A DNA stretch of 64,000 nt from Callorhinchus milii (Eukaryota), in contig NW_024704752.1 in NCBI RefSeq assembly GCF_018977255.1, positions 9,858,001 to 9,922,000 of the forward strand. Reading direction: 5' to 3'. Shown here one piece after another: positions 3,033 to 51,983 of this stretch. Within the stretch, counting starts at the first letter, position 1. Every line of letters begins with the position of its first letter. A program made the position numbers and the translations under genes. The notes under the pieces were generated by a model, which was given only the letters and a program-made list of their open reading frames with translations, had not been told where the DNA came from and did not search any database.

Positions 3033-6000
3033 TCACTGTTTCTTGAAAGCCACTTTACCCATCATATGCTCCTTCGTATTTTCTTCTTTTTTCAGCAGAA
3101 TAATATAACATTTTGGTGCAAAAATACAGACAATTAACCCAAAGCTTGAGGCCAAAATAGCAAATATTTCTACAGCAACAGTATATTTTCCAGGAGAGCT
3201 TACATAAGCTGGAATGAAAGTGATCCAAACAGCACAGAAGATAAGCATGCTGAAAGTGATGTGCTTCGCTTCATTGAAGTTGTCTGGAAGTCGGCGAGCG
3301 AGAAAAGCAACTCCAAAGCATACACAAGACAACAGTCCAATGTAACCAAGTACACAGTAAAAGGCGACTGCAGATCCCAGATGGCATTCAAACACGATTC
3401 TCTCCCTAAAATATTCACTATTTTTCAGAGGATAAGGTGGTGCCAAACATAGCCAGACAGTACATATTAAGCATTGTATCAGAGTAAGGATGAAAACACT
3501 CAGGCGTTGTTGTGTAGGTCCAAACCACTTCATCATGTTATTACTGGGAAGTGTTGCATTAAATGCCATCACCACAACGATTGTTTTTCCCAAAACACAG
3601 GAAATACAAAGAACAAACGTAATACCAAAAGCTGTGTGACGTAACCTACAGGACCAGACTGAAGGCTCTCCAATGAATGTAATTGAGCACAGAAAACACA
3701 AAGCTAATGCGAAAAGAAGCAGAAAACTTAACTCTAAGTTATTAGCTTTAACAATAGGAGTGTCTCTGTGAACATAGAAAGCTGCAAAGACACCTAAAGT
3801 GATGCAGACTCCAAGCAATGCCAGTGTCACTAGAACAATCCCTAATGTCTCCTCGAAGGAGAGGAATTCAATTTCCTTCAGTATGCAATGATTTTGTTTA
3901 TCATTGGACCGGTATTCCAAAGGACATTTGAGGCAAACGGTTGAATCTGAAATGACGCACAGCATATTCATAGATGCGTGATTTAGAATTGAAATACGTC
4001 CAATAAATGTTTGAGAATATAAGAAAGAATTGATAGCTGCGTTTGTTCTTACCAGTGATGTTACTAATTTCACCATCAGCACATTCTATACAATCAAAGC
4101 AACACTTTGGTTGTCCTCTTCTTGCTGCTTTCCTTGTTCCAGGGAGACAACTGTCCGAGCAAACCGCCCGTGGGACCTAGTTAAGACAAATGCAGATATT
4201 TAATTTTAGTTTTATACAATTTCTCTTTCACTGAAGGCATGTGGTTCTTCAGTTCCATGTAATTATTTTCCTCCTGAGACTCATGAGTGCGCAGGAAAAG
4301 TGCTTACCGTAATGTGCCCTCCACTCCATACAATTACCGCCTCCCGTATCTTAAATTCTTCTCCTGGAGGAGCAGATCCATCATAGTGCCCGATAGTAAC
4401 AACATCAGTTCCACTGAGGTCATTTGGTTGCCAGTTTATAATGTCGTATGTTGGCACTGGATCCCCGCTTGCATCAAAATGAACATTTTCTCCAATCTTT
4501 GTGTTGAAATTTACAGTTTTCATGTAATGCAGAAGCTTTATTGGAGAATAAGATTATTGGAGAAGAGGAAATAACCTTTTACTTCAGCAAAGTACGTCAA
4601 ACACCTACAATGGTGGAACGCTAATCAATACAAGGAACACAGGTATAGGTTCCACACTCATTATGTACTGAGGAGGAACAGAAGCTTTAGTGATGCTGAG
4701 CTAAAATCCGTGTCCGTTCAATCCTTATTACTATTCAATCACGCGTTTCCTTCATGGTACCCGAACTTTTAAAGATGCAAAGTAAGATTAGGTTTGAGGG
4801 CGACAATATCTTTCAAATTGAATACTGCAAAAACATTCACTCTCAAAGACAACAATGAGGATGGCCATAATACGGGATTGGACCAACAGTAAAATGTTAA
4901 ATATTAAATTGGCAAAAAAAATCACAAATAAATATGCTTTAATCATATATTTGGTATAACCTTAGAAGAACGAATCCATGAGCATAGCTTTCAATTTATA
5001 TAGCACTTAATACAGATGACACTTAAATTCTATTGAAACATTTAACAATTACATGGCAAATCATATGAAGAACTGCTTACTTGCCATGGTTGAAAGTTTG
5101 AAATATTTGCACAACTTTTATTGGAAAAAGGTCCTTTGCCAATTTCACATGACAGCATATCCTGAAGAGCATGAGCTATAGCGTAGGTTGCTGTATAGAC
5201 CTTGTAGGTAACTCTGTACTGAGACACATCTGTATATGCATTATTTATATTCCGTAAATTCTCTCGTCCTGTGCATTTCTTAAATCCGTCTGCTTTGTGC
5301 TCCCCGTTTCTTAGTGTACAGTTGAAGGTTCTTTCCCAAAACTCTTTTATTAAGCGGTTTCTTGGATATGCAGAAGGATGAACTTGCAGTAGAAACTCTC
5401 TCAACCCTGGAACGTGTACTTTGCGAATGGCAATTCCAATTGTGCCGGAAAGGAACCGTCTACGTTCTTCTGGGACAGATGTGTTGTGGTGACCCACGCC
5501 TCACTTCCTATCCATTGAATACCTGTCACATTTTGACGCACAATTTCTTTTAGTAGAGCAGTCATATGAGAATGAGCAAGAAATGCTACAACAACTTTTG
5601 TGGTAGATTTCTTTATAATATTTACAGTTTTAAGTAACTCTTCCCTCGAATATGTTATATGGAAAGATTCAGAAAATGCAATACAAACATCCAGTTGTTG
5701 CACAGCTTCTGTGAATGCTTTAATTCCGAAGTTACCATAGTCATCGTCACTTCTAATGGTCCCGATCCACGTCCAACCAAAGTGTTTCACCAGCTGAGCC
5801 AAGGCTCTGACCTGAAAGTAGTCACTTGGTATTGTTCTAAAAAATGATGGATATTCCCTCCTGTTGCTCAGACATTCACATGTAGCAAAGTAACTTACCT
5901 ACGGAAATTAAAATGAGAAATAGAGCCAATAATCTTGAACTCAAATTATAATTACCTGTAAACAAAACGTTCACTTTTTATGACAAAGGTGTTATGCATA

Positions 6001-9000
6001 AAGTTCAGTAACTATTATTGAATATTCCATTGATGACTTTGTTTATCGCTTCCATTTAGCAGTGAACATGTTGTTCTGGTACAGTACAAAACTTACATTA
6101 GAATACATTAGAATGTAAAGCACAGGAACAGACCATTCGGCCCAACTGGTCTCGCCAGCCTCCTCCTGCCCTTCCTCAACTAAGCCTTCAAGCATAACCT
6201 TCTAAAAACATTGATTATATTGCACCTCGTCGTTCTGAAAGTGTAAAATCGGCTGATGAATTGATAAAACATTGCTTAGCACGTGAAGCAATAATCATTA
6301 ACAATATCATGAATGAATTAATCGATTTTTATTGCATGTAAGTATCCACAGTATTATTTAATAAAAGAAGCATGGATTCTAACTATATCCAACTAAATGG
6401 AAGTGAACAATAAAGTATGTTGAATATCACTTTTCTTTTACTGTGTTCCAGCAAACTGGCATCATATTCCTTGAAAGAACTTACCAGAGGAATCCTAAAA
6501 GGACTGATTAAGGTCGCTATTGCTGCGGACATTGAGGAACTGGAGTCACCAACAATAGCAGAAACCACGGGTGCTCTTTTGCAGGTGAAATCTGAAGATG
6601 TTTCTTCGAGTCCGTTTAAAAAATGGAAGGTTTTTTTTATTGATACAGATGGCGTTCCACAAGAGTCGGAAATCCAGTAGCCCAGAGTAATGTTGGGAAG
6701 CAGTGTCGGGTCTTTGTTTATTTCTTCTATAGCAAAGAGCATCGCCATTGCTAAACGAAACGATCTGAATCGAAACCTGTAGCAATGACAATATTAAATC
6801 TGTCGATTTTTTTTATAACAGTGAAAGGTATTATTACTTTGGAAAAGAATATACCAATAGACCAATAGGGTCCCGACTTGAAAGGCGCTCTATAAATGAA
6901 ATCTTGTTGTTGTTGTTGTTGTAGATAGAATTCCCTTTCCGTAGGTGAATTACTTTGCTACATGTGAATGTCTGAGTAACAGGAAGGAATATCCATCATT
7001 TTTTAGAACAATACCAAGTGACTACCATCATGGTAAAGAAGGATTAAAGGATGAAATCAATATTTGGAGCAAGATATGAACATAAGACATAAGAATTGCT
7101 CGACGATAGATGACTGAGGTCATCCAGTTTGCCTTCCAGCATCATTGGCTGTCGTATGCACATGTCATGTCCCAAACTATGTACTGTATCGCACGATATT
7201 GTTTTGTAAACTAAATCTATCCAATTTTCTTTTGAAAGAATTGACATTTTCTGCTTCTCCCATCTGCCTAGGGAGCCTGTTCCATAAACTGACTACTCAC
7301 TCATTGCAATAGTGATTCCACAGACTATTTTGAATTTATCCCTCTTCAATCACAGTCCCTGTCCTCTGGTTCTACTGTTCTGTAGAAGATAAAACAGTTT
7401 ACCATGGTCTACATTATCCAAAACTGCATAATTTAATCAAGCTCCGTCCCATCCACGGTTTATAAATCAGCAGGATTCAAAGAACCACAGAATCATAAAA
7501 TATTACAGAAGAGAAGGCACCCATTCAACCCATTGTGCCTGTGCAGCTTCTTTGGAAAAGTTACCCAATCAGTCCCACTCCCCCGCTCTTTCTCCATAAC
7601 CCTGTAAATTGCTCCTTTTCAAGTACCTATCTAATTCCATTTTGAAAGTTGTTATTGAATCTACCAGCCTTTCAGGCAGTGCATTCCAACCTTGAACACC
7701 TTTGATTACCCCACTATTTCTGGAGAAATCGTAGAGGCCTGTAGCTAAATGGTTAGAGCACTTGCCCTGCAAGAGAGAGACCTGGGTTCGATTCCCGGCA
7801 GGGCAGAACGTTGGGCCAGTTTCCTTACTCCACATGTCTGATAATAATCCCTCAAGAAAAAAAAACAATAATAAATTGGTCACTTCAGTCTACGACTGCT
7901 TGTGGGACACTGCTGTTGACAATTCGCTGCCGCGTTTTGCCCACAAAATATACAGTCAATTCACTTTCCATTATATTATGTGAAGCACTTTGAGACATCT
8001 TAGAAGATGTGAAAAGTGCTATATCAAATGCAAGGATTATTATTATTTCACCTCAATATTGCCCTTTCAATACAATCCAGCATCTGGTATGCTCTGCTCA
8101 CTGCCAATGAGCATTGTTACAATGGCTTAAATTTATTGTCAACCAGGACATCCAAGTTCTTTTCATTTTACTTATATATTATTTTCTTCCCATTTAAATA
8201 TTAGTTCTTTGCTGTATTTTGCGTCTTCAGCTGAAGCACCTTGCATTTCTTTCAGCTGAAATTTACCTGACATCGGTCGGCTCAAGATTGCACATCTTTC
8301 TGTATTGCTTACAAATATAAATAATAAAATCATACTCACATAGATATTGTTAGCTCATTTTCTGTAACTTAATTTGATGAAATTGAATCTGACATGGCTA
8401 TGTTTTGAAATGGTAACTAACAAACATGACCCGGAGCAGACCGGCTTTATACCTGCATTGCTTTCAGATGACTTCCCACCTTGAAGCCTCCACAGACGTG
8501 AAATAAGTGAATTATATTATAATCGTAACGTTGACCAGACTACCTATTAGGGTTTTGGTGTGTAGGCCTGAGACTATACATAAATTTGCAAATCTGCTTA
8601 CAATTACTGCAGATTTGCCCAAGTTTTTAACAAACCAATTCAGCCCAGATGGATTTGCTTACCATCTGCTCTTCTTCCCAGACGATAAACTATATAACAA
8701 CGTTTAATAATAATAATAATAATAATAATAATCCTTGCATTTGATATAGCGCTTTTCACGTCAGGAGGACGTCCCAAAGCGCTTCACAGAACACACTGTA
8801 AAGTGAATTGACTGTATATTTGTGGGCGAACGCAGCAGTCAATTGTGCACAGCAATGTCCCACAAACAGTCGTAGATTGAAAATGACCAATTTATTATTG
8901 TTTTTGGTTTTGGAGGGATTATTATTAGGCTCTGTGTGGAGTAAGGAAACTTGCCCAAGATTTCGCCCTCTGCCTGGAATTGAACTCAGGTCTCTCACTT

Positions 9001-9711
9001 GCAAAGCGAGTGCTCTAACCACTGAGCTACAGCTACAGGACTCCACAATGAAATATTTGACAATGAAATGTGCGAAACAAATTTGAATATTTTGGGCACT
9101 TCACAATTCTGGAAACCCGTCTTCGAGCTTATCAAAATATTATTTGTGTCATAGAAATCTGATTGTAAATTTGCAAATATTACCTAGAATGTACATGGAA
9201 AGTATGACTCATATTCTTAGTAACAATTTTCAATATATTGTACAGTGAGATCACTAAATTATCTTCGAAATCAGATAGTTGGGCACTGCACTACCTTCAC
9301 ACGTTTAAAAAAAAGGCTTTCATCCAAACAAATATATCCTCTTTATAGAGCTAGAAATGATTAAACATATATTATCATGCTCCAACAATGTTAGCTACCT
9401 AAAAGTGTTCAAGTAATTTGGCTATTTCATGACATTAATCCTCAACAGTCTGCCGATTTTTAAAATCCGATAAGACAAACGGACAGTTTCACTAACTTTG
9501 TACATGTTACTGCTTTCGGTTGGGATTTAAAATTCATATCCTGATCCTCAACATCGACATGAATACTGAAAACTCCTCCGAGAACGATGTCGCCATCTTC
9601 AGACAAACCGAGCAGATCAAACATCCCCCAATGTTTGCAGGTTGTCTCTTCAGTCAGCCACACAGGAACAGGAACAGAAATCAATAGCACACAGAGCATA
9701 GGGAAACACAT
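3033..9711 (-). CDS. G1: V2R/OlfC class C GPCR, 6 exons, about 863 aa if one frameshift is corrected (as assembled: frameshifted in exon 3)
   Basis: Exons 9497-9711, 6485-6776, 5081-5898, 4308-4535, 4053-4176, 3033-3946, all GT-AG. Motifs: [40 protein letters not shown], nine-Cys domain, [30 protein letters not shown]. Exon 3 is 818 bp because GGGG is GGG at about 5472-5474. Confidence 0.9.
6868..6921 (+). mobile_element. Ultra-short 3' tail of an L2 LINE with (GTT)n, in intron 1 of G1 (copy at about 14107-14158 in G2)
   Basis: tgaaaggcgctctataaatgaaatcttgttgttg matches the 3' end of the L2 at 30617-30690. Confidence 0.75.
6936..7025 (+). repeat. Inverted 90-bp copy of the intron-2 acceptor plus first 81 nt of exon 3, inside intron 1 of G1
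   Basis: tttccgtaggtgaattactttgctacatgtgaatgtctgagtaacaggaaggaatatccatcattttttagaacaataccaagtgactac is the reverse complement of 5818-5907 with 4 mismatches. Confidence 0.95.
7075..7715 (-). mobile_element. Degenerate CR1-like LINE 3' fragments in intron 1 of G1
   Basis: Reverse frame encodes [23 protein letters not shown]...[11 protein letters not shown] (CR1 ORF2 C-terminus); cataagacataagaa and cagaatcataaaa terminal repeats. Confidence 0.75.
7733..8047 (+). mobile_element. tRNA-derived DeuSINE-like SINE (copy at about 14541-14853 in G2)
   Basis: A-box tagctaaatgg, B-box ggttcgattcc, Deu-like core, (ATT)n tail. Flanked by tatttc; the empty site gattaccccactatttcagctcagtattgcc is seen in G3 at 22411-22440. 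Confidence 0.88.
8707..9045 (-). mobile_element. Young tRNA(Ala-like)-derived DeuSINE-like SINE (copy at about 15511-15863 in G2)
   Basis: Head ggagtcctgtagc..tcagtggttagagcactcgctttgcaag..gagttcaattcc, core gtgggacattgctgtgcacaattg, L2-type tail with (ATT)n. Confidence 0.92.
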
Positions 9712-10270
9712 AGTTTTTAACTGTGTCCTTCAGTGTCCAGAACACAGGTAATCACCCTTATATACTTTTAATACTGACATCTGTGCGCATTTGCTTTAAA
9801 TAGATATATTATTCCAGGTGCTCTGAACAAATTAAGGACAATTCTCAGAAGGAAGCAAATGACCACTTTAATTTTTCTCCAGATAATCAAACCAAAGGAG
9901 AAAAGAACAAAATTTAATTACAGAGTCATCTGAGCGTAGGGTACAATCTTATTCCTTTATCATTAATTTTCTACAGCACCGATTAATTTCCTTAAGGTTT
10001 TATGATTTAATTTAACAGATGTGTGCTGTATCATAAACATTTTACGGATCACCAAGTTTTATACCAAGTTTTGCACCAAGTTTTACCGAGAGTTTTTTAT
10101 CCATTAACAATTAAAAAACTATTGTGCATTCAATACATTAAATTATTCACTTTTATTAGTATTACATGATGAATCAGAATCTCATGATACTTCAGGGGGA
10201 GTAACACAACCAACTTCTAACTAGCATGTAATGTTTTGAACAAAATTTTAATTTCATTCAGAAAAAATGT
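9712..10270 (-). promoter_or_regulatory. Compact G2-stop to G1-ATG spacer holding the 3' end of G2 and the promoter of G1
   Basis: TATATAA 9758-9764, TTCTCAGAA near 9842-9850, CAGATG 10016-10021, ATTAAA about 20 nt after the G2 stop. Confidence 0.55.
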
Positions 10271-13200
10271 TCACTGTTTCTTGGAAGCCATTTTACCCAT
10301 CATGTGCTTCTTCGTATTTTCCTCTTTTTTCAGCAGGATAATATAACATTTTGGAGCAAAAATACAGACAAGTAATCCAAAGCTTGAGGCCAAAATTGCA
10401 AATATTTCTACAGCCACAGTATATTTTCCAGGAGAGCTTACATAAGCTGGAATGAAAGTGATCCAAACAGCACAGAAGATAAGCATGCTGAAAGTGATGT
10501 GCTTCGCTTCATTGAAGTTGTCTGGAAGTCGGCGAGCGAGAAAAGCAACTACAAAGCATACACCAGACAACAGTCCAATGTAACCAAGTACACAGTAAAA
10601 GGCGACTGCAGATCCCAGATGGCATTCAAACACGATTCTCTCCCTAAAATATTCACTATTTTTCAGAGGATAAGGTGGTGCCAAACATAGCCAGACAGTA
10701 CATATTAAGCATTGTATCAGAGTAAGGATGAAACACTCAGGCGTTGTTGTGTAGGTCCAAACCACTTCATCATGTTATTACTGGGAAGTGTTGCATTAAA
10801 TGCCATCACCACAACGATTGTTTTTCCCAAAACACAGGAAATACAAAGAACAAACGTAATACCAAAAGCTGTGTGACGTAACCTACAGGACCAGACTGAA
10901 GGCTCTCCAATGAATGTAATTGAGCACAGAAAACACAAAGCTAATGCGAAAAGAAGCAGAAAACTTAACTCTAAGTTATTAGCTTTAACAATAGGAGTGT
11001 CTCTGTGAACATAGAAAGCTGCAAATACACCTAAAGTGATGCAGACTCCAAGCAATGCCAGTGTCACTAGAACAATCCCTAATGTCTCCTCGAAGGAGAG
11101 GAATTCAAGTTCCTTCAGTATGCAATGATTTTGTTTATCATTGGACCGGTATTCCAAAGGACATTTGAGGCAAACGGTTGAATCTGAAATGACGCACAGC
11201 ATATTCATAGATGCGTGATTTAGAATTGAAATACGTCCAATAAATGTTTGAGAATATAAGAAAGAATTGATAGCTGCGTTTGTTCTTACCAGTGATGTTA
11301 CTAATTTCACCATCAGCACATTCTATACAATCAAAGCAACACTTTGGTTGTCCTCTTCTTGCTGCTTTCCTTGTTCCAGGGAGACAACTGTCCGAGCAAA
11401 CCGCCCGTGGGACCTAGTTAAGACAAATGCAGATATTTAATTTTAGTTTTATACAATTTCTCTTTCACTGAAGGCATGTGGTTCTTCAGTTCCATGCAAT
11501 TATTTTCCTCCTGAGACTCATGAGTGCGCAGGAAAAGTGCTTACCGTAATGTGCCCTCCACTCCATACAATTACCGCCTCACGTATCTTAAATTCTTCTC
11601 CTGGAGGAGCAGATCCATCATAGTGCCCGATAGTAACAACATCAGTTCCACTGAGGTCATTTGGTTGCCAGTTTATAATGTCGTATGTTGGCACTGGATC
11701 CCCGCTTGCATCAAAATGAACATTTTCTCCAATCTTTGTGTTGAAATTTACAGTTTTCATGTAATGCAGAAGCTTTATTGGAGAATAAGATTATTGGAGA
11801 AGAGGAAATAACCTTTTACTTCAGCAAAGTACGTCAAACACCTACAATGGTGGAACGCTAATCAATACAAGGAACACAGGTATAGGTTCCACACTCATTA
11901 TGTACTGAGGAGGAACAGAAGCTTTAGTGATGCTGAGCCAAAATCCGTGTCCGTTCAATCCTTATTACTATTCAATCACGCGTTTCCTTCATGGTACCCG
12001 AACTTTTAAAGATGCAAAGTAAGATTAGGTTTGAGGGCGACAATATCTTTCAAATTGAATACTGTAAAAACATTCACTCTCAAAGACAACAATGAGGATG
12101 GCCATAATACGGGATTGGACCAACAGTAAAATGTTAAATATTAAATTGGCAAAAAAAATCACAAATAAATATGCTTTAATCATATATTTGGTATAACCTT
12201 AGAAGAACGAATCCATGAGCATAGCTTTCAATTTATATAGCACTTAATACAGATGACACTTAAATTCTATTGAAACATTTAACAATTACATGGCAAATCA
12301 TATGAAGAACTGCTTACTTGCCATGGTTGAAAGTTTGAAATATTTGCACAACTTTTATTGGAAAAAGGTCCTTTGCCAATTTCACATGACAGCATATCCT
12401 GAAGAGCATGAGCTATAGCGTAGGTTGCTGTATAGACCTTGTAGGTAACTCTGTACTGAGACACATCTGTATATGCATTATTTATATTCCGTAAATTCTC
12501 TCGTCCTGTGCATTTCTTAAATCCGTCTGCTTTGTGCTCCCCGTTTCTTAGTGTACAGTTGAAGGTTCTTTCCCAAAACTCTTTTATTAAGCGGTTTCTT
12601 GGATATGCAGAAGGATGAACTTGCAGTAGAAACTCTCTCAACCCTGGAACGTGTACTTTGCGAATGGCAATTCCAATTGTGCCTGAAAGGAACCGTCTAC
12701 GTTCTTCTGGGGACAGATGTGTTGTGGTGACCCACGCCTCACTTCCTATCCATTGAATACCTGTCACATTTTGACGCACAATTTCTTTTAGTAGAGCAGT
12801 CATATGAGAATGAGCAAGAAATGCTACAACAACTTTTGTGGTAGATTTCTTTATAATATTTACAATTTTAAGTAACTCTTCCCTCGAATATGTTATATGG
12901 AAAGATTCAGAAAATGCAATACAAACATCCAGTTGTTGCACAGCTTCTGTGAATGCTTTAATTCCGAAGTTACCATAGTCATCGTCACTTCTAATGGTCC
13001 CGATCCACGTCCAACCAAAGTGTTTCACCAGCTGAGCCAAGGCTCTGACCTGAAAGTAGTCACTTGGTATTGTTCTAAAAAATGATGGATATTCCCTCCT
13101 GTTGCTCAGACATTCACATGTAGCAAAGTAACTTACCTACGGAAATTAAAATGAGAAATAGAGCCAATAATCTTGAACTCAAATTATAATTACCTGTAAA

Positions 13201-15509
13201 CAAAACGTTCACTTTTTATGACAAAGGTGTTATGCATAAAGTTCAGTAACTATTATTGAATATTCCATTGATGACTTTGTTTATCGCTTCCATTTAGCAG
13301 TGAACATGTTGTTCTGGTACAGTACAAAACTTACATTAGAATACATTAGAATGTAAAGCACAGGAACAGACCATTCGGCCCAACTGGTCTCGCCAGCCTC
13401 CTCCTGCCCTTCCTCAACTAAGCCTTCAAGCATAACCTTCTAAAAACATTGATTATATTGCACCTCGTCGTTCTGAAAGTGTAAAATCGGCTGATGAATT
13501 GATAAAACATTGCTTAGCACGTGAAGCAATAATCATTAACAATATCATGAATGAATTAATCGATTTTTATTGCATGTAAGTATCCACAGTATTATTTAAT
13601 AAAAGAAGCATGGATTCTAACTGTATCCAACTAAATGGAAGTGAACAATAAAGTATGTTGAATATCACTTTTCTTTTACTGTGTTCCAGCAAACTGGCAT
13701 CATATTCCTTGAAAGAACTTACCAGAGGAATCCTAAAAGGACTGATTAAGGTCGCTATTGCTGCGGACATTGAGGAACTGGAGTCACCAACAATAGCAGA
13801 AACCACAGGTGCTCTTTTACAGGTGAAATCTGAAGATGTTTCTTCGAGTCCGTTTAAAAAATGGAAGGTTTTTTTTATTGATACAGATGGCGTTCCACAA
13901 GAGTCGGAAATCCAGTAGCCCAGAGTAATGTTGGGAAGCAGTGTCGGGTCTTTGTTTATTTCTTCTATAGCAAAGAGCATCGCCATCGCAAAACGAAACA
14001 ATCTGAATCGAAGCCTGTAGCAATGACAATATTAAATCTGTCGATTTTTTTATAACAGTGAAAGGTATTATTACTTTGGAAAAGAATATACCAATAGACC
14101 AATAGGGTCCCGACTTGAAAGGCGCTCTATAAATGAAATCTTGTTGTTGTTGTTGTTGTAGATAGAATTCCCTTTCCGTAGGTGAATTACTTTGCTACAT
14201 GTGAATGTCTGAGTAACAGGAAGGAATATCCATCATTTTTTAGAACAATACCAAGTGACTACCATCATGGTAAAGAAGGATTAAAGGATGAAATCAATAT
14301 TTGGAGCAAGATATGAACATAAGACATAAGAATTGCTTGAAGATAGATGACTGAGGTCATCCACTTTGCCTTCCAGCATCATTGGCTGTCGTATGCACAT
14401 GTCATGTCCCAAACTATGTACTGTATCTATCTAATTCCATTTTGAAAGTTGTTATTGAATCTGTTTCTACCAGCCTTTCAGGCAGTGCATTCCAACCTTG
14501 AACAACTTTGATTACCCCACTATTTCTGGAGAAATCGTAGAGGCCTGTAGCTAAATGGTTAGAGCACTTGCCCTGCAAGAGAGAGACCTGGGTTCGATTC
14601 CCGGCAGGGCAGAACGTTGGGCCAGTTTCCTTACTCCACATGTCTGATAATAATCCCTCAAGAAAAAAAAACAATAATAAATTGGTCACTTCAGTCTACG
14701 ACTGCTTGTGGGACACTGCTGTTGACAATTCGCTGCCGCGTTTTGCCCACAAAATATACAGTCAATTCACTTTCCATTATATTATGTGAAGCACTTTGAG
14801 ACATCTTAGAAGATGTGAAAAGTGCTATATCAAATGCAAGGATTATTATTATTTCACCTCAATATTGCCCTTTCAATACAATCCAGCATCTGGTATGCTC
14901 TGCTCACTGCCAATGAGCATTGTTACAATGGCTTAAATTTATTGTCAACTAGGACATCCAAGTTCTTTTCATTTTACTTATATATTATTTTCTTCCCATT
15001 TAAATATTAGTTCTTTGCTGTATTTTGCGTCTTCAGCTGAAGCACCTTGCATTTCTTTCAGCTGAAATTTACCTGACATCGGTCGGCTCAAGATTGCACA
15101 TCTTTCTGTATTGCTTACAAATATAAATAATAAAATCATACTCACATAGATATTGTTAGCTCATTTTCTGTAACTTAATTTGATGAAATTGAATCTGACA
15201 TGGCTATGTTTTGAAATGGTAACTAACAAACATGACCCGGAGCAGACCGGCTTTATACCTGCATTGCTTTCAGATGACTTCCCACCTTGAAGCCTCCACA
15301 GACGTGAAATAAGTAAATTATATTATAATCGTAACGTTGACCAGACTACCTATTAGGGTTTTGGTGTGTAGGCCTGAGACTATACATAAATTTGCAAATC
15401 TGCTTACAATTACTGCAGATTTGCCCAAGTTTTTAACAAACCAATTCAGCCCAGATGGATTTGCTTACCATCTGCTCTTCTTCCCAGACGATAAACTATA
15501 TAACAACGT

Positions 15510-15550
<41 letters not shown>

Positions 15551-16528
15551 CCTTGCATTTGATATAGCGCTTTTCACGTCAGGAGGACGTCCCAAAGGGC
15601 TTCACAGAACACACTGTAAAGTGAATTGACTGTATATTTGTGGGCGAACGCGGCAGCCAATTGCACACAGCAATGTCCCACAAACAGTCGTAGATTGAAA
15701 ATGACCAATTTATTATTGTTTTTGGTTTTGGAGGGATTATTATTAGGCTCTGTGTGGAGTAAGGAAACTTGCCCAAGATTTCGCCCTCTGCCTGGAATTG
15801 AACTCAGGTCTCTCGCTTGCAAAGCGAGTGCTCTAACCACTGAGCTACAGCTACAGGACTCCACAATGAAATATTTGACAATGAAATGTGCAAAACAAAT
15901 TTGAATATTTTGGGCACTTCACAATTCTGGAAACCCGTCTTTGAGCTTATCAAAATATTATTTGTGTCATAGAAATCTGATTGTAAATTTGCAAATATTA
16001 CCTAGAATGTACATGGAACGTATGACTCATATTCCTAGTAATAATTTTCAATATATTGTACAGTGAGATCACTAAATTATCTTCGAAATCAGATAGTTGG
16101 GCACTGCACTAGCTTCACACGTTTAAAAGAAAGGCTATCATCCAAACAAATATATTCTCTTTATAGAGCTAGAAATGATTAAACAGATATTATCATGCTC
16201 CAACAATGTTAGCTACCTAAAAGTGTTCAAGTAATTTGGCTATTTCATGACATTAATCCTCAACAGTCTGCCGATTTTTAGAATCCGATAAGACAAATGG
16301 ACAGTTTCACTAACTTTGTACATGTTACTGCTTTCGGTTGGGATTTAAAATTCATATCCTGTTCCTCAACATCGACATGAATACTGAAAACTCCTCCGAG
16401 AACGATGTCGCCATCTTCAGACAAACCGAGCAGATCAAACATCCCCAATGTTTGCAGGTTGTCTCTTCAGTCAGCCACACAGGAACAGGAACAGAAATCA
16501 ATAGCACACAGAGCATAGGGAAACACAT
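10271..16528 (-). CDS. G2: V2R/OlfC class C GPCR, near-identical duplicate of G1 with a G3-type 3' end; two frameshifts as assembled (pseudogene or homopolymer errors)
   Basis: Exons 16315-16528 (214 bp, CCCCC is CCCC at 16443-16446), 13723-14014, 12318-13136, 11545-11772, 11290-11413, 10271-11183 (913 bp, AAAA is AAA at 10731-10733). Confidence 0.88.
14173..14262 (+). repeat. Inverted 90-bp copy of the exon-3 acceptor/start inside intron 1 of G2
   Basis: Identical to 6936-7025; reverse complement of 13056-13145 with 4 mismatches. Confidence 0.95.
14541..14853 (+). mobile_element. tRNA-derived DeuSINE-like SINE (duplicate of 7733-8047)
   Basis: Essentially identical sequence and flanks to the G1 copy. 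Confidence 0.88.
15511..15863 (-). mobile_element. Young tRNA-derived DeuSINE-like SINE (duplicate of 8707-9045)
   Basis: Same head, including the gctaca duplication, core and (ATT)n tail. Confidence 0.92.
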
Positions 16529-17095
16529 AGTTTTTAACTGTGTCCTTCAGTGTCCAGAACACAGGTAATCACCCTTATATACTTTTAATACTGACATCTG
16601 TGCGCATTTGCTTTAAATAGATATATTATTCCAGGTGCTCTGAACAAATTAAGGACAATTCTCAGAAGGAAGCAAATGACCACTTTAATTTTTCTCCAGA
16701 TAATCAAACCAAAGGAGAAAAGAACAAAATTTAATTACAGAGTCATCTGAGCGTAGGGTACAATCTTATTCCTTTATCATTAATTTTCTACAGCACCGAT
16801 TAATTTCCTTAAGGTTTTATGATTTAATTTAACAGATGTGTGCTGTGTCATAAACATTTTACGGATCACCAAGTTTTATACCAAGTTTTGCACCAAGTTT
16901 TACCGAGACTTTTTTGTCCATTAACAATTAAAAAACTATTGTGCATTCAATACATTAAATTATTCACAACTTTGCTTTTATTAGTATTACATGATGAATC
17001 AGAATCTCATGATACTTCAGGGAGAGTAACACAACCAACTTCTAACTAGCATGTAATGTTTTGAGCAAAATTTTAATTTCATTCAGAAATAATGT

Positions 17096-20000
17096 TCACT
17101 GTTTCTTGGAAGCCATTTTACCCATTATGTGCTTCTTCGTATTTTCCTCTTTTTTCAGCAGGATAATATAACATTTTGGAGCAAAAATACAGACAAGTAA
17201 TCCAAAGCTTGAGGCCAAAATTGCAAATATTTCTACAGCCACAGTATATTTTCCAGGAGAGCTTACATAAGCTGGAATGAAAGTGATCCAAACAGCACAG
17301 AAGATAAGCATGCTGAAAGTGATGTGCTTCGCTTCATTGAAGTTGTCTGGAAGTCGGCGAGCGAGAAAAGCAACTACAAAGCATACACCAGACAACAGTC
17401 CAATGTAACCAAGTACACAGTAAAAGGCGACTGCAGATCCCAGATGGCATTCAAACACGATTCTCTCCCTAAAATATACAGTATTTTTCAGTGGATAAGG
17501 TGGTGCCAAACATAGCCAGACAGTACATATTAAGCATTGTATCAGGGTAAGGATGAAAACACTCAGGCGTTGTTGTATAGGTCCAAACCACTTCATCATG
17601 TTATTACTGGGAAGTGTTGCATTAAATGCCATCACCACAACGATTGTTTTTCCCAAAACACAGGAAATACAAAGAACAAAAGTGATACCAAAGGCTGTGT
17701 GACGTAACCTACAGGACCAGACTGAAGGCTCTCCAATGAATGTAACTGAGCACAGAAAACACAAAGCTAATGCGAAAAGAAGCAGAAAACTTAACTCTGA
17801 ATTATTAGCTTTAACAATAGGAGTGTCTCTGTGAATATAGAAAGCTACAAATACACTTATAGTGATGCAAACTCCAAGCAATGCCAGTGTCACTAGAGCA
17901 ATCCCCAATGTCTCCTCGAAGGAGAGGAATTCAATTTCCTTCAGTATGCAATGATCTCGTTTTTCATTGGACCGGTATTCCAAAGGACATTTGAAGCACA
18001 AAGTTGAATCTGAAAGAAAGTAAATTGTGATTGAATGAACCTGAATTGAAATCTGTTCAATAAATGTTTGTGACTATAAGAATTAATTGATAGCTGTGTT
18101 TGTTCTTACCAGTGATGTTACTAATTTCACCATCAGCACATTCTATACAATCAAAGCAACACTTTGGTTGTCCATTTCTTGCTGCTTTCCTTGTTCCAGG
18201 GAGACAACTGTCAGAGCAAACCGCCCGTGGGACCTGGTTATAGATAAATGTAAGATGTTAATGTTATGCAGTTGCTCTTTTGCTGAAGGTGTGTTATTTT
18301 TCTGTTCCAGGTAATTATTTATCCCGAGATCCGTGTTCATTTGTAAGATCGGTTTGTCGTAGCCGAGCAACTCCTTTAACTTCTCAGATAATATTTCACA
18401 GCAAAAGCCCTTACCGTAATCTGACCTCCTCTCCATACAACTGCCTCTTCCTTTATATTAAGTTCTTCCCCTGGAAGAGCAGATCCATCATAGTGCCCGA
18501 CAGTGATTATATCAGTGCCGCCGAGGCCATTTGGTTGCCAGTTTATAATGTCGTACGTTGGCACTGGATCCCCGTTTTCATCGAAATGAACATTTTCACC
18601 AATCTTTGTGTTGAAATTTAATGTCTTCATGTAATGCAAAATCTATATTGGAAAAGAAGAAGAGAAGAAGAAATAATCTTTGATTTTATCAAAATACTAT
18701 AAACATTTATAATTGTGCAACACGAAGCATTACAAGGCAAACATGTTGCAGGTTCCAATCTCATTCTGTGCCGAGCAGTAGCAGTTGTTACCAATTGGCT
18801 TTAATGCCGCTGAACCAAGAAAGGGAAAATCAGTGTCTATTTCCCCTATTGTAGTGTCTATTGTAATTAGATGGTTTCAAGATGCACAGTAAGAATATGT
18901 TTGAGGGTGGTAATGTCCTTCCAATTGAATCGTGTGAAAATACTCTCTAAGGCCACATTTACAAAAAACGAGGATTGTCATGGTATGGGAATCCGACCAT
19001 CAGCAAAATAATAAATAGTAAATTAGCAAGAACAGCACAAGAATCCACAAACAGACATGTTAGGTAATATATTTGGAGTCCTGTAGCTCAGTGGTTAGAG
19101 CACTCGCTTTGCAAGTGAGAGACCTGAGTTCAATTCCAGGCAGAGGGCGAAACCTTGGGTAAGTTTCCTTACTCCACACAGAGCCTGATAATAATCCCTC
19201 CAAAACCCAAAACAATAATAAATTGGTCATTTTCAATCTACAACCGTTTGTGGGACATTGCTGTGCGCAATTGGCTGCCGCGTTCGCCCACAAATATGCA
19301 GTCAATTCACTTTACAGTATATTCTGTGAAGCACTTTGGGACGTCTAGAAGACGTGAAAAGTGCTGTATCAAATGCAAGGATTATTATTATATTTGTTAT
19401 AATCTTGGAACCACAGATCTATGGCTATAGCTTTCTACTCATATAGCACCTTACACAAACTAAACATAAACACCATTCAAAGTTTAACATTTACAAGACA
19501 AATCATATGAAGATCGTCTTACTTGCCATGGTTGAAAGTTTGAAATATTTGCACAACTTTTATTGTAAAATGGTCCTTTGCCACTTTCACATGACAGCAT
19601 ATCATGAAGAGCATGAGCTATAGCGTAGGTAGCTGTATAGACCTTGTTGGTAACTCTGTACTGAGACACATCTGTATATGCATTATTTACAGTCCGTAAA
19701 TTCTCTCGTCCTGTGCATTCCTTAATTCCGTCTGCTTTGTGCTCCTCGTTTCTTAATGTACAGTTGAACGTCATTTCCCAAAATTCTTTTATTAAACGGT
19801 TTCCTGGATATGCAGAAGGATGAATTCGCAGTAGAAACTCTTTCAACCCTGGAACATGTACTTTGCGAATCGCAATTCCAATTGTGCCGGAAAGGAATCG
19901 TCTACTTTCTTCTGGAGGCAGATGTGTTGTGGTGACCCACGCCTCACTTCCTATCCATTGAATACCTGTCACATTTTGTCTTACAATTTCTTTTAGTAAA

Positions 20001-23000
20001 GCAGTCATGTCAGAGTGACCAAGAAATGCTACAACAACCTTTGTGGTAGATTTCTTGATAATGTCTATAGTTTTAAGCAATTCCTCCCTCGAGTATGTTA
20101 AATAGAATGACTCAGAGTAGGCAATACAAACACCGAGTTGTTGTACAGTTTCTGTGAACGCTTGGATTCCAAAGTTACCATAGTCATCATCACTTCTAAT
20201 GGTCCCAATCCACGTCCAACCAAAGTGTTTCACCAACTGAGCCAAGGCTCTGACCTGAAAGTAATCACTTGGTATTGTTCTAAAAAATGATGGATATTCC
20301 TTCCTGTTGCTCAGACATTGACACGTAGCAAAGTAACTTACCTACGAAAATAAACATGAGAAAGAGAACAAATAAACTTGAGCTCAAATTATAATTATCT
20401 GTAAATAAAATGTTCACTTTTCATGGTGAGCATGTTATTACTATTACCGAATGCTTATCCCATTGATAACCTTCCAGTTAGCAGTGAACATGTTGTTAGG
20501 GTACAGTACAAAACTTACATTCATCAAACATTGAATATATTACACATCGTCACATAATTTTTACACATTACACACAAGTGGAAAATCGTGTTATTACTAT
20601 TAACCAAAACTGACATTCATCAAACATTGATTATATTATATATCGTCATTCTGAAAGTATAAAATTAGCTAATAAAATGATTAAAACACATTGCTTAGCA
20701 ATAATCATTAATGATATTATGAATGAATTAATTGACATTTTGTTGCATGTCATTTTTTGGTTGCATTAAAAGAATTGCTGATTCTAAATGTATCTAACCA
20801 AATGGAAGTGGATACAAAGTATGTTGGATATCACTTTTCTTTTATTGTGCTCCAGCAAACTTACGTCATATTCCATGAAATAGCTTACCAGAGGAATCCC
20901 AAAAGGACTGATCAAGGTTGCTACTGCTATGGACAATGAAGAACTGGAATGACCAACAATAGCGGAAACCACAGGTGCTCTTTTGCAGGTGAAATCTGAA
21001 GATATTCCTTCGAGTCTGTTTAAAAATTCGAAGGTTGTTTTTATTGATACGGCAGGTGTTCCACAAGCGTCAGAAATCCAGTAACCCAGAGTAATGTTGG
21101 GAAGCAGTGTCAGGTCTTTGTTTATTTCTTCTATAGCAAAGATCATCGCCATTGCTAAACGAAACTGTCTGAGTCGAAACCTGTAGCAATCAAAATATTA
21201 AATACACTATCTCTCAATTTTTTACAACATTGAAAGTGACACTGGTATTATCATTCCAGAAAAGAATAAACCAATAGATAAAATGTCCTTTTCTGCGGTT
21301 AAGTCATAGCAAAGAAGGATTAAAGGATGGAATCAACATTTGGAGCAAGATACGAACATAAGATATAAGAATTGCTAGATGATAGATGACCAAGGACCAT
21401 TCAGTTTTCCTTCTATCATTTTTGGCAGTCACATGAACATTTCACGTCCCAAACTATGAAATGAATCCCACTATATTATTTCGTAAAATAAATCTATCCA
21501 ATTTGCTTTTTGAAAAAATTAACATTTTCTGCTTCCACCATCTCCCTAGGGAGCCTGTTCCATAAATGTACTACTCACTCACTGTAATAGTGATTCCGCA
21601 GACTTGTTTTGAATGTACCTCCCTTCAATTGCAGTCGCTGTCCTCTGGTTCTCCTGTTCTGTACAAGATAAAGCAACCTTGGTCTACATTAGTCTTTTGT
21701 ACTGCAGCGACCAGAACTGCACACTGTACTCAAGTGCGGTCCCATTATAGTTTATAATAATAATAATAATAATAATCCTTGCATTTGATATAGCGCTTTT
21801 CACGTCGGGAGGACGTCCCAAAGCGCTTCACAGAACACACTGTAAAGTGAATTGACTGTATATTTGTGGGCGAACGCAGCAGCCAATTACGCACAGCAAT
21901 GTCCCACAAACAGTCGTAGATTGAAAATGACCAATTTATTATTATTTTTTGTTTTGAAGGGATTATTATTAGGCTCTGTGTGGAGTAAGGAAACTTGCCC
22001 AAGGTTTCGCCCTCTGCCTGGAATTGAACCCAGGTCTCTCGCTTGCAAAGCGAGTGCTCTAACCACTGAGCTACAGGACTCCTGAATTGTTAGGATTCAT
22101 AGAATCATAGAACCGTAGAATATTACAGCACTAATATTCTATATTCATATTCTAAGCGCTCTGAGATGTCTACCATGTGTGGAGGGCACTAAATAAGTGC
22201 AAGTTGTAACACACAAGGAGGCCATTCGGCCCAGTGTGCATTTGCCTGCTCTTTGGAAGAGCTATCCAATCATTCCCACTCCCCCGCTCTTTCACCGCAC
22301 TTCTGCAAATTTTCCTTTTTCAAGTATCTATCCAATTCCCTTTTGATAGTCGTTATTGAATCTGTTTCCACCAGCCTTTTAGACAGTGCATTCGAGACCC
22401 TAACAACTTTGATTACCCCACTATTTCAGCTCAGTATTGCCTTTTTGATACAACCCAGCATCTGGTTTACTCTGCTCACTGCCACTGAGCATCGATACAG
22501 TGCCTTCAATTTATTGTCAACCAAAACACCTTTTCATTTTCGGTACATATTACTTTCTTTCCATTTAAATAATAGTCCCTTGCTGTATTTTGTGTCCCCA
22601 GGTGAAGCACCTTGCATTTCTCTACATTGAATTTTATCTGACATCGGTCTGCCCAAGAGACTATACGTGAATCTGCAAATCTGCTGATAATTATTGCAGA
22701 ATTGCCTAAGTTTTTAACAGACCAATTCAACCCATATGGATTTGTTTACCATCTGCTCTTCTTCCCAGACGATAAACTATATAATAACGTTTGATAATGA
22801 AATGTGCAAACCAATTTGAATATTTTGGGCACATAAGCACTTCACAATTCTGGAACCCAGTCTACGTGCTTATCAAAAGAAAATTGTCAAATGGCGGATT
22901 TGTGTCATAGAAATCTGATTGCAAATTTGTAAATTTACCTAGAGTGTACATGGAAAGTATGATTCATATTCCTTGTAACAATTCGAATATACTGTACAGT

Positions 23001-30616: not shown

Positions 30617-31572
30617 CAACAACAACAACAACAACAAGATTCCATTTATAGAGCGCCTTTCACGTCAGGAGGACGTCCCAAGGCGCTGCACAGTTGGGTC
30701 ATGACCCGAGCAGGGAGGAAATGGTCAGGGTGAGGGGAGGGAAGGGAGGGAGAGAGGAGGGGGGAAATGGTCAGGGTGAGGGGAGGGAAGGGAGGGAGCG
30801 AGGAGGAGGAAGAGAGTCGAGAGGGGAGCTGAAGGCACGGTCAAAGAGAAAGGTTTTGAGACCGGCCTTGAAGGAGGAAAGGGAGGAAGCAAGGCGAAGG
30901 CACTGGGGGATGGAGTTCCAGAGCCTGGGGGCTGAGAGGCTGAAGGCCCGACCACCGATAGTAGGGCGGTTGGGGCGGGGGACGTGGAGCAGACCGGAGC
31001 CAGAGGAACGGAGGGTACGGGCAGGTAGGTAGGGGGATAGTAGGTTGGAGAGGTAGGAGGGAGCAAGGCCGTGAATGGCCTTGTAGGTGAGGATGAGGAT
31101 CTTGAAATCAATCCTCTGGGGGATGGGGAGCCAGTGGAGGCGAGCGAGGGTGGGAGTGATGTGATCGCGAAGCCTGGTGCGGGACAGTACACGAGCTGCA
31201 GAGTTCTGAATGACCTGCAGCTTGTGGAGGGAAGTGGCGGGAAGGCCGGCGAGGAGAGAGTTCCCATAGTCCAGCCTTGAGGTGACAAAGGCGTGAACCA
31301 GGGTTTCAGCGGCGTGAGGGGTGAGGTAGTGCCGTAATCTGGCGATATTCCGGAGGTGATGGAAGGCGGTGCCAGTTGTGGTGCGGATGTGAGGGAGAAA
31401 GGACAGCTCAAGGTCGAACAAAACGGCGAGGTTCCTGACTGGCTTTGAGAGGTGGAGAGTGCAGCCTTGGATGCTGATGGTGTCAGCGCCTGAGGTGCGG
31501 AGGCGCTGACGTGAGCCAATCAGGAGGGCCTCGGTTTTTCGCACGTTGAGCTGAAGAAAGTTGTCTCTCGTC
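30617..31572 (-). mobile_element. Young 5'-truncated L2 LINE (ORF2 C-terminus, 3' UTR, (GTT)n tail)
   Basis: Uninterrupted ORF NFLQLNVRKTEALLIG...VTSRLDYGNSLLAGLP...LHWLPIPQRIDFKIL...GGRAFSLSAPRLWNSIP...FKAGLKTFLF; tail gacgtgaaaggcgctctataaatggaatcttgttgttg. Confidence 0.95.
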
Positions 31573-31772
31573 CAGGACTCGCCCGACATGACACGCTGTG
31601 CCAAATGTAAGAGTTATTATTTTATTGTGTCCACTTACATATATTCCTCACTGGCATTAACTTTTAACAGACGGCCCTGAAAGAGGTCAAAATAATAAAG
31701 AAATAAAATTGAAATATTTGCTGTAATGNTTTTTGAATAACCATTAACTGCTTTTATTAGATGCTTTACTCA

Positions 31773-31992
31773 TCATGTGTTTCTTCTAGCATTTGCTGGC
31801 TTTAGTAATATGATGTAACATTTGAGAGTAAATATACATATACATAATGTAAAACTAGATGCCAAAATAGCAAACACTTCTATGGCTAGAGTGTATTTTT
31901 CAGGATAGTTTATATAAGCTACCATTGAAGTTATCCAAACTACACAAAAGAAAAGCAAAGTAAAAGTAATACATTTATCTTCATTAAAATTT
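31773..31992 (-). pseudogene. Relic V2R exon-6 3' fragment (TM6-TM7) of a more distant subfamily
   Basis: [65 protein letters not shown]; no other exons, and the 5' side is replaced by CR1 sequence. Confidence 0.88.
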
Positions 31993-31994
31993 CT

Positions 31995-32285
31995 CGACCC
32001 TGTTCTGCCATTCTGATAGATCTTGGCTGATCTATACCTCAACTCTACATTACCCACCTTTGCCACATACCTCTTGATACCCCTCGCTAACAATAACTCA
32101 ACCTTCTAAACTCAAGGAAATACAGGCCACGTTTAAGCAACCTGTCCTCATAATTAACCCGGCTCTGGTTTCAGTTTGATGAATCTGGAATCTGTCACCC
32201 CCAAATCCCACCCTCAATATATCTTTCCGGAGGTGTCATGGCCATAACCGGACCGAATACTCCAGATGGGATCTGACCAAGGCTG
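31995..32285 (-). mobile_element. CR1-like LINE fragments
   Basis: gatcttggctgatctatacctcaactc...cataccccttgatacc-like 3' region and gaatactccagatgggatctgaccaaggct RT-region motif. Confidence 0.65.
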
Positions 32286-51745: not shown

Positions 51746-51884
51746 TTATAAAACACAATTATGTAGATTCCTCGCTGGCATTAACTTTTAACAGGTAAGT
51801 CTTTTAAAAGAGGTGGAAATAATAAAGAAATAAGACTGAAATATTTGCTCTGCACCTCGTTTGAATACCAATGAAAGCTCTATC

Positions 51885-51983
51885 CATCATGTGCTTCTTT
51901 GTATAATTTGCTGGCTTTAGTAATATGATTTAACATTTGGGAGCAAATATACAGACAAGTAATGCAAAGCTAGATGCAAAAAT
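51885..51983 (-). pseudogene. Relic V2R exon-6 3' tip, paralog of 31773-31992
   Basis: Reverse strand reads [31 protein letters not shown]-like with a lesion; the 3' flank is shared with the 31.7 kb relic. Confidence 0.8.

Follow-up and report, generated by a model that had tools for sequence, protein, structure and literature searches.

The G1 locus and its neighbouring features

The window analysed here is a stretch of 64,000 nucleotides of Callorhinchus milii DNA, and the coordinates of its features are collected in Table 1. G1 is a six-exon class C receptor gene, assigned to the V2R/OlfC type by ANF_receptor and 7tm_3 matches above cut-off together with its six exons; the best solved relative is CaSR. 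We take the exon pattern to be that of V2R/OlfC genes. With the tandem array, this pattern and the description in PMC10116579, V2R/OlfC is the probable label for the family.

Exon 3 had been described in an earlier note on this DNA as 819 nt long and in phase 0-0. The phase is as described, and 819 nt is the length found in G2 and 13 further close paralogs, whereas G1 as assembled has 818 nt. G2 as assembled likewise shows 1-bp deletions, near 10730 and 16442. Among the contigs listed from public runs, none spans the G1 frameshift near 5472.

Two repeat features that the earlier note does not mention lie in intron 1 of G1. The LINE-like tail, which is present only in G1 and G2, is bounded by a 4-bp target duplication, TAGA (6858-6861 and 6922-6925), and ends 14 bp from the left junction of the insert described below. 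We presume it to be of the L2 kind, a label that stays an assumption because the open reading frame at 30771-31613 has no Pfam match. The inverted SINE-like pair is predicted to form a duplex of -413 kcal/mol.

Table 1. Coordinates of the features of the G1/G2 region, numbered from the first letter of the window.
Feature	Position	Strand	Remarks
G1	3033..9711	-	six-exon class C GPCR of V2R/OlfC type
G1 exon 1	9497-9711	-	
G1 exon 2	6485..6776	-	292 nt; inside duplex loop
G1 exon 3	5081..5898	-	818 nt as assembled; 1-bp deletion in G run near 5472
G1 exon 4	4308-4535	-	
G1 exon 5	4053-4176	-	
G1 exon 6	3033-3946	-	
G2	10271..16528	-	recent duplicate of G1 with G3-like 3' end (putative crossover in exon 6)
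Partner arm	5818..5907	-	last 9 nt of intron 2 including AG (5899-5907) and first 81 nt of exon 3 (5818-5898)
LINE-like 3' tail	6862..6921	+	60 bp; 5'-truncated; ends in (TTG)n
Insert	6936..7025	+	copied intron-2/exon-3 junction in G1 intron 1; antisense in G1 pre-mRNA
Left-junction microhomology	6936..6940	+	TTTCC; begins 14-nt tract where empty site resembles exon-3 acceptor
Right junction	7023..7035	.	2 extra nt (7026-7027) within 6-bp perfect palindrome; snap-back-like
Inverted SINE-like pair	7739-8047 / 8721-9032 (span 7739..9032)	.	G1 intron 1; 310 bp, 83%
Identical insert in G2 intron 1	14173..14262	+	partner arm 13056-13145

Intron 1 of G1 carries an inverted copy of the intron-2/exon-3 junction

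A self-BLAST of the window (E 6e-35) showed that 5818-5907, read in reverse complement, agrees with 6936-7025 at 86 of 90 positions, which bears out the inverted copy with four differences claimed in the earlier note. The insert lies 159 nt upstream of the exon-2 acceptor. The two arms are 1028 nt apart, so that the loop of about 1.03 kb around exon 2 is also as had been claimed. Among 17 same-strand V2R/OlfC-like paralogs, the only carriers are G1 and its recent duplicate G2; a genome search found the flanks in 2 of the 40 scored matches, again G1 and G2, and the insert with its flanks is the same in both over 160 nt. G3-G7 show an empty site at the same intron position in the paralog alignment, in agreement with the earlier description.

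The element had been called self-made, and alignment to all paralogs had been suggested as a way to find its donor. This alignment yielded no single donor: the insert has four mismatches to each of G1, G2, G5 and the paralog at -23503, a four-way tie, and a self-made origin is one possibility among these. All four best-matching donors lie within the same cluster, one of them 1 kb from the insert.

Such an arrangement might also be an assembly artefact caused by a chimeric or fold-back read, which we judge extremely unlikely. The assembly does contain 1-bp homopolymer deletions in this region, and G1 and G2 in tandem might represent a second haplotype joined in error. However, the insert carries a variant that is missing from all 15 exon-3 starts compared, from each of which it is at least 4 nt apart, and it is present in both copies, the introns of which are 0.8% apart. 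Moreover, contig 2 of public run X1, which may be the assembled sample, matches 6933-7159 with 0 differences and reads across the right junction. The earlier note made its idea depend on raw long reads containing the inverted segment; this contig holds the insert and its right junction exactly, while the left junction is reached by only 3 flank letters. Run X2 (2025) gave contigs that match intron 2 and exon 2 exactly, none of which joins across the insert; its depth was 2.3 on 6800-6903 and 5.3 on 7008-7111 against 14-20 on unique intron parts, a hole that is not proof of absence. Runs X2-X5 each gave 0.28 of the words, and their contigs show presence, not absence; 25 of 381 31-mer words recur elsewhere within 880 kb, which neither explains nor excludes this value.

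The junctions fit a template-switch or repair event

The structure of the junctions suggests that the insert is likely the product of one template-switch or repair event. At the insertion site, as judged from paralogs, about 10 bp are replaced and the flanks are continuous. There is no target duplication and no poly(A) tract or signal, and the donor sequence is intact. The empty sites of the paralogs read (C/T)TTCC, so the microhomology common to both sides of the left junction is 4-5 bp. In the 14-nt tract that begins with it, the empty site matches the gene's own acceptor on the opposite strand at 9-10 of 14 positions in 6 of 9 paralogs; an equal or better match occurs at only 2-23 of 5988 opposite-strand positions, with the register chosen after seeing the insert. 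The copy thus starts at an acceptor because the empty site already resembled it, and selection is not needed to account for this. At the right junction, a palindrome such as the one observed is found within 5 nt of 2.9% of 3791 intron positions. The replaced 10 bp, the TTTCC tract, the acceptor homeology and the junction palindrome uphold the microhomology-mediated template switching proposed in the earlier note.

Starting from a site with the likeness to the opposite-strand exon-3 acceptor that the paralogs show, a 3' end at ~6940 would have annealed via TTTCC to the acceptor 1 kb away. The simplest form of this step would be an intra-strand fold-back with exon 3 of the same gene as template, and a paralog donor is also possible. 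About 85 nt would then have been copied, and the end would have rejoined through a microhomology made by snap-back, with the loss of ~10 bp. The unit now occurs in two copies, and the 3' end of G2 is G3-like, which points to an unequal crossover in exon 6. The arms now differ by four transitions.

Relation to known mutational events

In four-point template-switch mutations, a short stretch gives way to nearby sequence copied in reverse complement (PMC5453318, PMC7954356). As described in these papers, the replacement creates an inverted repeat and builds on pre-existing imperfect complementarity; on the + strand, the order here would be 3-2-1-4. The insert is indeed the reverse complement of nearby sequence, and the segment that it replaced has register-keeping flanks. 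On the other hand, the copy measures 85-90 nt against a median of 12 nt and a maximum of 128 reported in the same papers, the template is 1 kb off with a putative cis donor, and the return junction carries 2 extra nt.

The insert also shares the lack of a target duplication or poly(A), the microdeletion, the microhomology, the extra nt and the intact donor with class 2 templated sequence insertions or double-strand break patches, and falls within the 73-414 bp reported for experimental insertions (PMC5110952). The polymorphisms of this class are described there with distant donors, whereas here one of the equally best donors sits in the same gene at a distance of 1 kb. We do not assign the insert to that class; all its best donors are in the same cluster. 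Snap-back synthesis-dependent MMEJ (PMC2943611) resembles the right junction, where the inverted repeat accounts for the 2-nt insertion; it covers the junction only and not the 85-nt patch, and the primer repeat in the empty allele of G1 is putative.

Copying from RNA deserves separate consideration. A LINE reverse transcriptase could have copied unspliced V2R pre-mRNA into a break, maybe in connection with the LINE-like tail, an origin that we regard as doubtful. Insert (in the V2R sense) and tail stand on the same strand 14 bp apart and are both specific to G1/G2, other exon pieces adjoin repeat ends in these clusters, and RNA-derived templated insertions have been reported (PMC5110952). However, the tail comes with a target duplication of its own and is separated from the insert by original target DNA, which points to separate events. 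The insert is without poly(A) or tail of its own, germ-line transcription of a V2R gene, here putative, would be needed, and DNA templating gives the same orientation. Most likely the insert is an ordinary scar of a DNA-copying error, the splicing effect of which is putative.

Predicted duplex and its possible consequences

The claim that G1 pre-mRNA can form a 90-bp duplex holds in silico: the helix is present in both the MFE and the centroid structure, at a predicted -148.4 kcal/mol. The four arm differences give two G-U and two A-C pairs, the same counts as in the earlier note. We set this pattern aside as a sign of design, as any transition in an inverted repeat yields G-U or A-C. At the sole exonic A-C site, editing would be silent (GTA to GTG).

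Long duplexes between inverted repeats are known from ADAR editing-complementary sequences, Alu pairs and back-splice flanks (PMC4066801, PMC7404189). The likeness lies in a long duplex with arms ~1 kb apart, an enclosed exon and the inclusion of exon sequence; intronic sequence pairing with an exon, as in editing-complementary elements, is predicted for the insert in silico. In contrast to these systems, the insert is not conserved across paralogs, the downstream arm lies mostly in an exon, not in an intron, and the duplex is a prediction from the DNA. Both arms of back-splice pairs lie in flanking introns; here the downstream arm consists of 9 nt of intron and 81 nt of exon 3. The duplex could still act like such flanks, since it encloses exon 2 together with the splice sites at either end. 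The editability of inverted repeats falls off over ~800 bp (PMC4066801), which places the 1-kb loop within editing reach, a point against a mere scar.

In the predicted folds, the mean unpaired probability of exon nucleotides 1-81 falls from 0.40 without the insert to 0.03 with it, a difference that speaks against a mere scar. So does the finding that, among the 17 genes, the G1-type duplex alone overlaps an exon or splice site, and is near-perfect; 4 of 15 non-carriers also hold inverted pairs flanking exon 2. If the duplex had a substantial effect that was never selected, an accidental insertion would have made G1 and G2 hypomorphs on the way to pseudogenes. Masking or ADAR loss of the exon-3 acceptor would then lead to skipping, to splicing at the in-frame YAG at +87 instead, or to exon-2 circles. 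We consider this unlikely. In its favour are the stability of the helix, with the last 7 nt of intron 2 fully paired in the ensemble, the paired acceptor A at 5900 in a UAG context with the next in-frame YAG 6 nt beyond the duplex, the frameshifts of both carriers as assembled, and known mechanisms of looping and masking (PMC7404189). Against it, the duplex reaches just 9 nt into intron 2, and positions -40 to -10 are predicted to be as open with the insert (0.56) as without it (0.57). The acceptor of insert-free G3 is also mostly paired in the same kind of fold, and masking of the AG in silico was therefore dropped as specific evidence. Moreover, the insert would have to stay unspliced until its partner appears 1 kb later, the N:S ratio is not relaxed, and each copy has frameshifts of its own, located in homopolymers.

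Exon-3 skipping would remove most of the ligand-binding domain (ANF_receptor positions 78-314 of 353) and is thus likely to mean loss of function, not a new receptor. Skipping could also happen without the insert, because 15 of the 17 paralogs start exon 3 with a donor-like GTRAG (GTAAGT in G1) completed by the exon-2 end. This start recalls recursive-splicing exons (PMC6224609), with the difference that it does not depend on the insert; it may have arisen as a side effect of the Val-Ser codons.

For a near-neutral scar, the duplex is predicted to form only on transcripts in which intron 1 is unspliced when exon 3 emerges, and to yield at most minor editing, skipping or circle by-products tolerated by selection. 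Runs X9 and X10, presumed to be RNA, gave contigs only on repeat pieces of 4200-7300 (3 of 30 bins each) and are uninformative on expression and splicing. Among the papers listed by a search of mostly open-access literature for an inverted copy of a gene's own exon acting on splicing, none is on V2R by title or start of abstract, and a further search for such a precedent gave no papers. A regulatory role is not refuted; the duplex is predicted to pair and its effect on RNA is putative.

No sign of selection on the insert

Conservation and compensatory change mark functional editing-complementary elements. Among the paralogs of this genome, the insert is confined to 2 of 17, and none of its four transitions is compensated. 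The private coding changes of the G1/G2 lineage number 18 N : 16 S, against ratios of 1.0-2.8 in the other 13 close paralogs, so purifying selection is not relaxed. The identity of the two inserts has a probability of 0.5 under neutrality. As assembled, 2 of 2 carriers are frameshifted compared to 1 of 13 non-carriers (Fisher p 0.029), which goes against a harmless scar; all four deletions sit in short homopolymer runs, a location that suggests possible assembly error.

A selected cis-antisense switch, acting like an editing-complementary sequence or by splice silencing to diversify or tune the chemoreceptor, is in our view very improbable. The exact overlap with the acceptor, the 0-0 phase of exon 3 and the retention in both duplicates would suit it. 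Yet it is absent from 15 of 17 paralogs and uncompensated, pre-existing homeology explains the acceptor overlap, skipping would take most of the ligand-binding domain, and the sole exonic A-C site edits silently. There is no sign of selection on the insert, which is lineage-specific and uncompensated and has similar copies elsewhere. On these grounds the regulatory part of the earlier claim is not sustained, and the neutral repair scar that the same note allowed for is the better reading. We thus think it probable that a V2R-type junction was copied backwards by one replication or repair template switch, and that the copy has no selected job. Overall, it is a near-neutral templated insertion with a possible side effect on splicing or editing.

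Significance and frequency of such copies

As a scar, the insert is ordinary but cleanly documented, with the empty site, the priming homeology, the junction palindrome and the later duplication all visible. G1 and G2 together with 15 near-identical insert-free paralogs form a natural experiment on whether a newborn 90-bp duplex with a 1-kb loop over a 3' splice site alters splicing or draws in ADAR in vivo, which bears on the origin of editing-complementary and splice-masking elements. There is a small chance that one copying error made a ready cis-antisense element that measurably silences or edits the exon-3 acceptor, through ADAR at the paired UAG at 5900 or through use of the in-frame acceptor at +87. 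If so, the inverted self-copies of 60-150 bp that recur in this genome would be a steady source of new splice or editing switches, and would also feed receptor death in V2R birth-and-death; a large effect would be an unusual shut-off of an olfactory receptor without coding mutation.

In 480 kb of V2R clusters, a further four local inverted copies of 64-94 bp that are not repeats were found. Two of them are exon-derived, and two are two-copy genome-wide, one of which encloses exon 2 of an intact paralog. The background count was made from 88 inverted-pair rows, with multi-copy repeats dropped. Outside V2R clusters such copies were scarcer: of 67 inverted pairs in 400 kb, 2 were two-copy, one being half repeat and the other taken at face value, and this speaks against an ordinary scar. 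The pair C11:665653/666093 was removed from the count as it proved to be a repeat, two candidate cases were left out as partial exon-1 duplicates common to paralogs, and the exon-6 piece at 62605-62707 of the window was left out as it may be a pseudogene remnant. Other exon pieces in the V2R clusters adjoin repeat ends.

Receptor genes and the inverted copy

Six-exon class C GPCR genes stand in tandem on the minus strand of the window; their products score above cut-off for both Pfam ANF_receptor and 7tm_3 and have CaSR as their closest solved relative. On the exon pattern, which we take to be of the V2R/OlfC type, the tandem arrangement and PMC10116579, we call the genes V2R/OlfC-like. Isolated exon-6 remnants lie between genes (31755-32009 and 51879-51983), and of two paralogs further upstream (exon 3 at window-equivalent positions -9652 and -31920) one carries, as assembled, a premature stop and the other a 1-bp deletion, both in exon 4.

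In a window self-BLAST (E 6e-35), 5818-5907 and the reverse complement of 6936-7025 agreed at 86 positions out of 90, which bears out the inverted 90-bp copy with four differences described in the earlier note. The lower arm joins the terminal 9 nt of intron 2 to 81 nt of exon 3. The upper arm, hereafter the insert, belongs to intron 1, with the exon-2 acceptor 159 nt downstream; 1028 nt separate the arms. The four differences would produce two G-U pairs and two A-C pairs in the pre-mRNA, as predicted, and the models of the carrier gene G1 agree with a phase 0-0 exon 3 and a 292-nt exon 2.

Among 17 same-strand paralogs in 170 kb, the insert occurs in two, G1 and its partner copy G2, in identical form, and only these two include its flanks among 40 scored genome matches. 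A contig from the public run X1, possibly the assembled sample itself, spans 6933-7159 with zero differences and crosses the right junction, extending just 3 letters past the left one. An assembly artefact is very unlikely: the insert differs by at least 4 nt from each of 15 exon-3 starts and holds one variant present in none of them, which disfavours a read chimera. The insert is a real, young templated inverted insertion.

The introns of G1 and G2 diverge by 0.8%, with a 437-bp indel (absent from intron 1 of G2). G2 (10160-16984) is a chimera of G1 and the neighbouring gene G3, the last 300 nt of its coding sequence being 99.7% identical to G3 and the next 600 nt 99% to G1. The pair and the G3-like 3' end would fit an unequal crossover in exon 6, from which a mis-joined second haplotype would look no different.

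Positions of the features, in window coordinates or, with the prefix C11, on contig NW_024704752.1
Feature	Position	Strand	Remark
G1 exon 1	9497-9711	-	
G1 exon 2	6485-6776	-	292 nt
G1 exon 3	5081-5898	-	phase 0-0
G1 exon 4	4308-4535	-	
G1 exon 5	4053-4176	-	
G1 exon 6	3033-3946	-	
Exon-3 starts	5898, 13136, 20341, 35475, 41602, 48375, 57415		also in upstream paralogs
Exon-3 end of a broken paralog copied inverted (87-91 bp) into the start of exon 3	C11:714908-714998 vs 715362-715452		junction microhomology
Exon-3 start of another gene, copied inverted (94 bp)	C11:633708-633800 vs 628620-628709		between repeat fragments, 0.7 kb beyond last exon
64-bp two-copy inverted pair	C11:9792312-9792375 / 9793017-9793079		introns 2 and 1, around exon 2 of an intact paralog
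86-bp two-copy inverted pair	C11:9932769-9932854 / 9935465-9935547		non-exonic DNA
105-bp two-copy direct pair	C11:15095880-15095984 / 15097588-15097692		non-exonic DNA

Junctions and origin of the insert

Alignment with the empty sites of paralogs showed that ~10 bp were replaced, with neither target duplication nor poly(A), and that the left junction has 4-5 bp of microhomology. The proposed microhomology-mediated template switch is thus upheld at the junction but not as to a donor in cis, since the paralog alignment ended in a four-way tie for best donor between G1, G2, G5 and one upstream paralog. Read on the opposite strand, the empty site already resembles the gene's own exon-3 acceptor, with 9-10 of 14 matches in six of nine paralogs and 7-8 in the other three; the higher likeness is equalled at only 2-23 of 5988 opposite-strand positions, the register being chosen post hoc in both counts. 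This offers a mechanical reason why the copy starts at a splice acceptor. At the right junction, 2 extra nt lie within a 6-bp palindrome (chance background, 2.9% of 3791 intron positions), the same pattern as in snap-back SD-MMEJ as outlined in PMC2943611, although the likeness is suggestive only. Because the copy includes intron sequence, its template was DNA or unspliced RNA; an RNA template, a matter separate from function, is a minor possibility. A 60-bp LINE-like tail, present in G1 and G2 only, lies 14 bp left of the insert (6862-6921), with its own 4-bp TAGA duplication and, at its 5' junction, 7 bp that repeat its 5' flank in direct orientation.

The nearest known events are template-switch mutations of the four-point type (PMC5453318; PMC7954356), with a median of 12 nt and a maximum of 128, and templated insertions of class 2 (PMC5110952); the insert has the junction features of both. 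Among the papers listed by a literature search of incomplete coverage, there was no precedent of exactly such an inverted own-exon copy.

Predicted RNA duplex

The folding proposed in the earlier note returned the expected helix: it is part of the MFE structure of 5700-7150 and of the centroid as well, and the duplex is predicted at -148.4 kcal/mol. With the insert, the mean unpaired probability of exon 3 nt 1-81 is 0.03, vs 0.40 without it, while positions -40 to -10 stay the same (0.56 vs 0.57). The acceptor of the insert-free G3 is likewise mostly paired in silico, so that predicted masking of the AG does not single out the insert. Long predicted duplexes are common in the cluster: intragenic inverted repeats occur in 7 of the 17 genes, a pair encloses exon 2 in 4 of 15 non-carriers, and a SINE-like inverted pair within intron 1 of G1 reaches -413 kcal/mol; the focal duplex is alone among these in overlapping an exon. 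Given that the editability of inverted Alus falls with a typical distance of ~800 bp (PMC4066801), some pairing in vivo is plausible, provided intron 1 is still present. In G3, a 329-bp SINE-like inverted pair (92%; 19075-19403 / 21754-22082) surrounds exons 2 and 3 at -563 kcal/mol, a circle-type geometry stronger than that of the focal duplex.

Possible effects on splicing and editing

The insert could act like the editing-complementary or back-splice elements treated in PMC7404189, but it lacks, across the paralogs, the conservation of the former, and it lacks the two intronic arms of the latter. The G-U/A-C pattern is simply the product of four transitions. Editing of the exonic A opposite C would be silent; the more consequential target is predicted to be the acceptor A at 5900, which is paired and part of a UAG, and the in-frame YAG that follows it lies at +87. 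Skipping of exon 3 would remove ANF_receptor positions 78-314 of 353, and would thus likely yield a dead product; joint skipping of exons 2 and 3 (1111 nt, with 819 nt for exon 3) causes a frameshift.

Exon 3 begins GTRAG, i.e. GT(A/G)AG(T/C), in 15 of 17 paralogs, where the preceding exon 2 has TG at its end, and the spliced junction recreates a donor equal in quality to the true one, the arrangement of RS-exons (PMC6224609). In-frame exon-3 skipping could, from these motifs, occur across the whole cluster. Exon 2-4 junctions are therefore possible without the insert, and the paralogs are the needed baseline. A sizeable unselected effect of the insert on splicing or editing, as the predicted helix would allow, is a minor possibility.

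Selection on the insert and its carriers

No signs of selection on the insert were found: it is restricted to the G1/G2 lineage and has zero compensated changes. A cis-antisense switch kept by selection is unlikely. Identity of the two inserts has a probability of 0.5 under neutrality. Private codon changes of the lineage (18 N : 16 S) can be set beside N:S ratios of 1.0-2.8 for 13 further close paralogs; the receptor is thus not evidently freed from selection, as judged from a ratio that covers the whole branch, on which the insert has no datable place. Frameshifts as assembled, in 2/2 carriers vs 1/13 non-carriers (Fisher p 0.029), count against a near-neutral reading; each of the four deletions removes one base from a short homopolymer run and is confined to one copy, which suggests long-read error. 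The insert is probably a near-neutral scar.

Similar copies elsewhere

Across 480 kb covering three V2R clusters (45 exon-5 hits), 88 local inverted-pair rows were obtained, mostly multi-copy repeats. Five are independent non-repeat events: the focal insert, two exon-3-derived copies (87-94 bp) and the 64- and 86-bp pairs, which are two-copy genome-wide. A sixth candidate proved a repeat and was dropped. A 400-kb sample of arbitrary DNA gave 67 inverted pairs, 2 of them two-copy (one of these half repeat), and 94 direct pairs, 4 of them two-copy (one confirmed genome-wide). Inverted copies are thus a recurrent class, perhaps less dense outside V2R clusters, the numbers being small. Exon pieces often adjoin repeat ends: 29 bp copied directly and without change from exon-3 sequence (C11:842314-842342) stand at the 5' end of one SINE-like element, and a 103-bp exon-6 piece (window 62605-62707) just after a (TTG)n tail.
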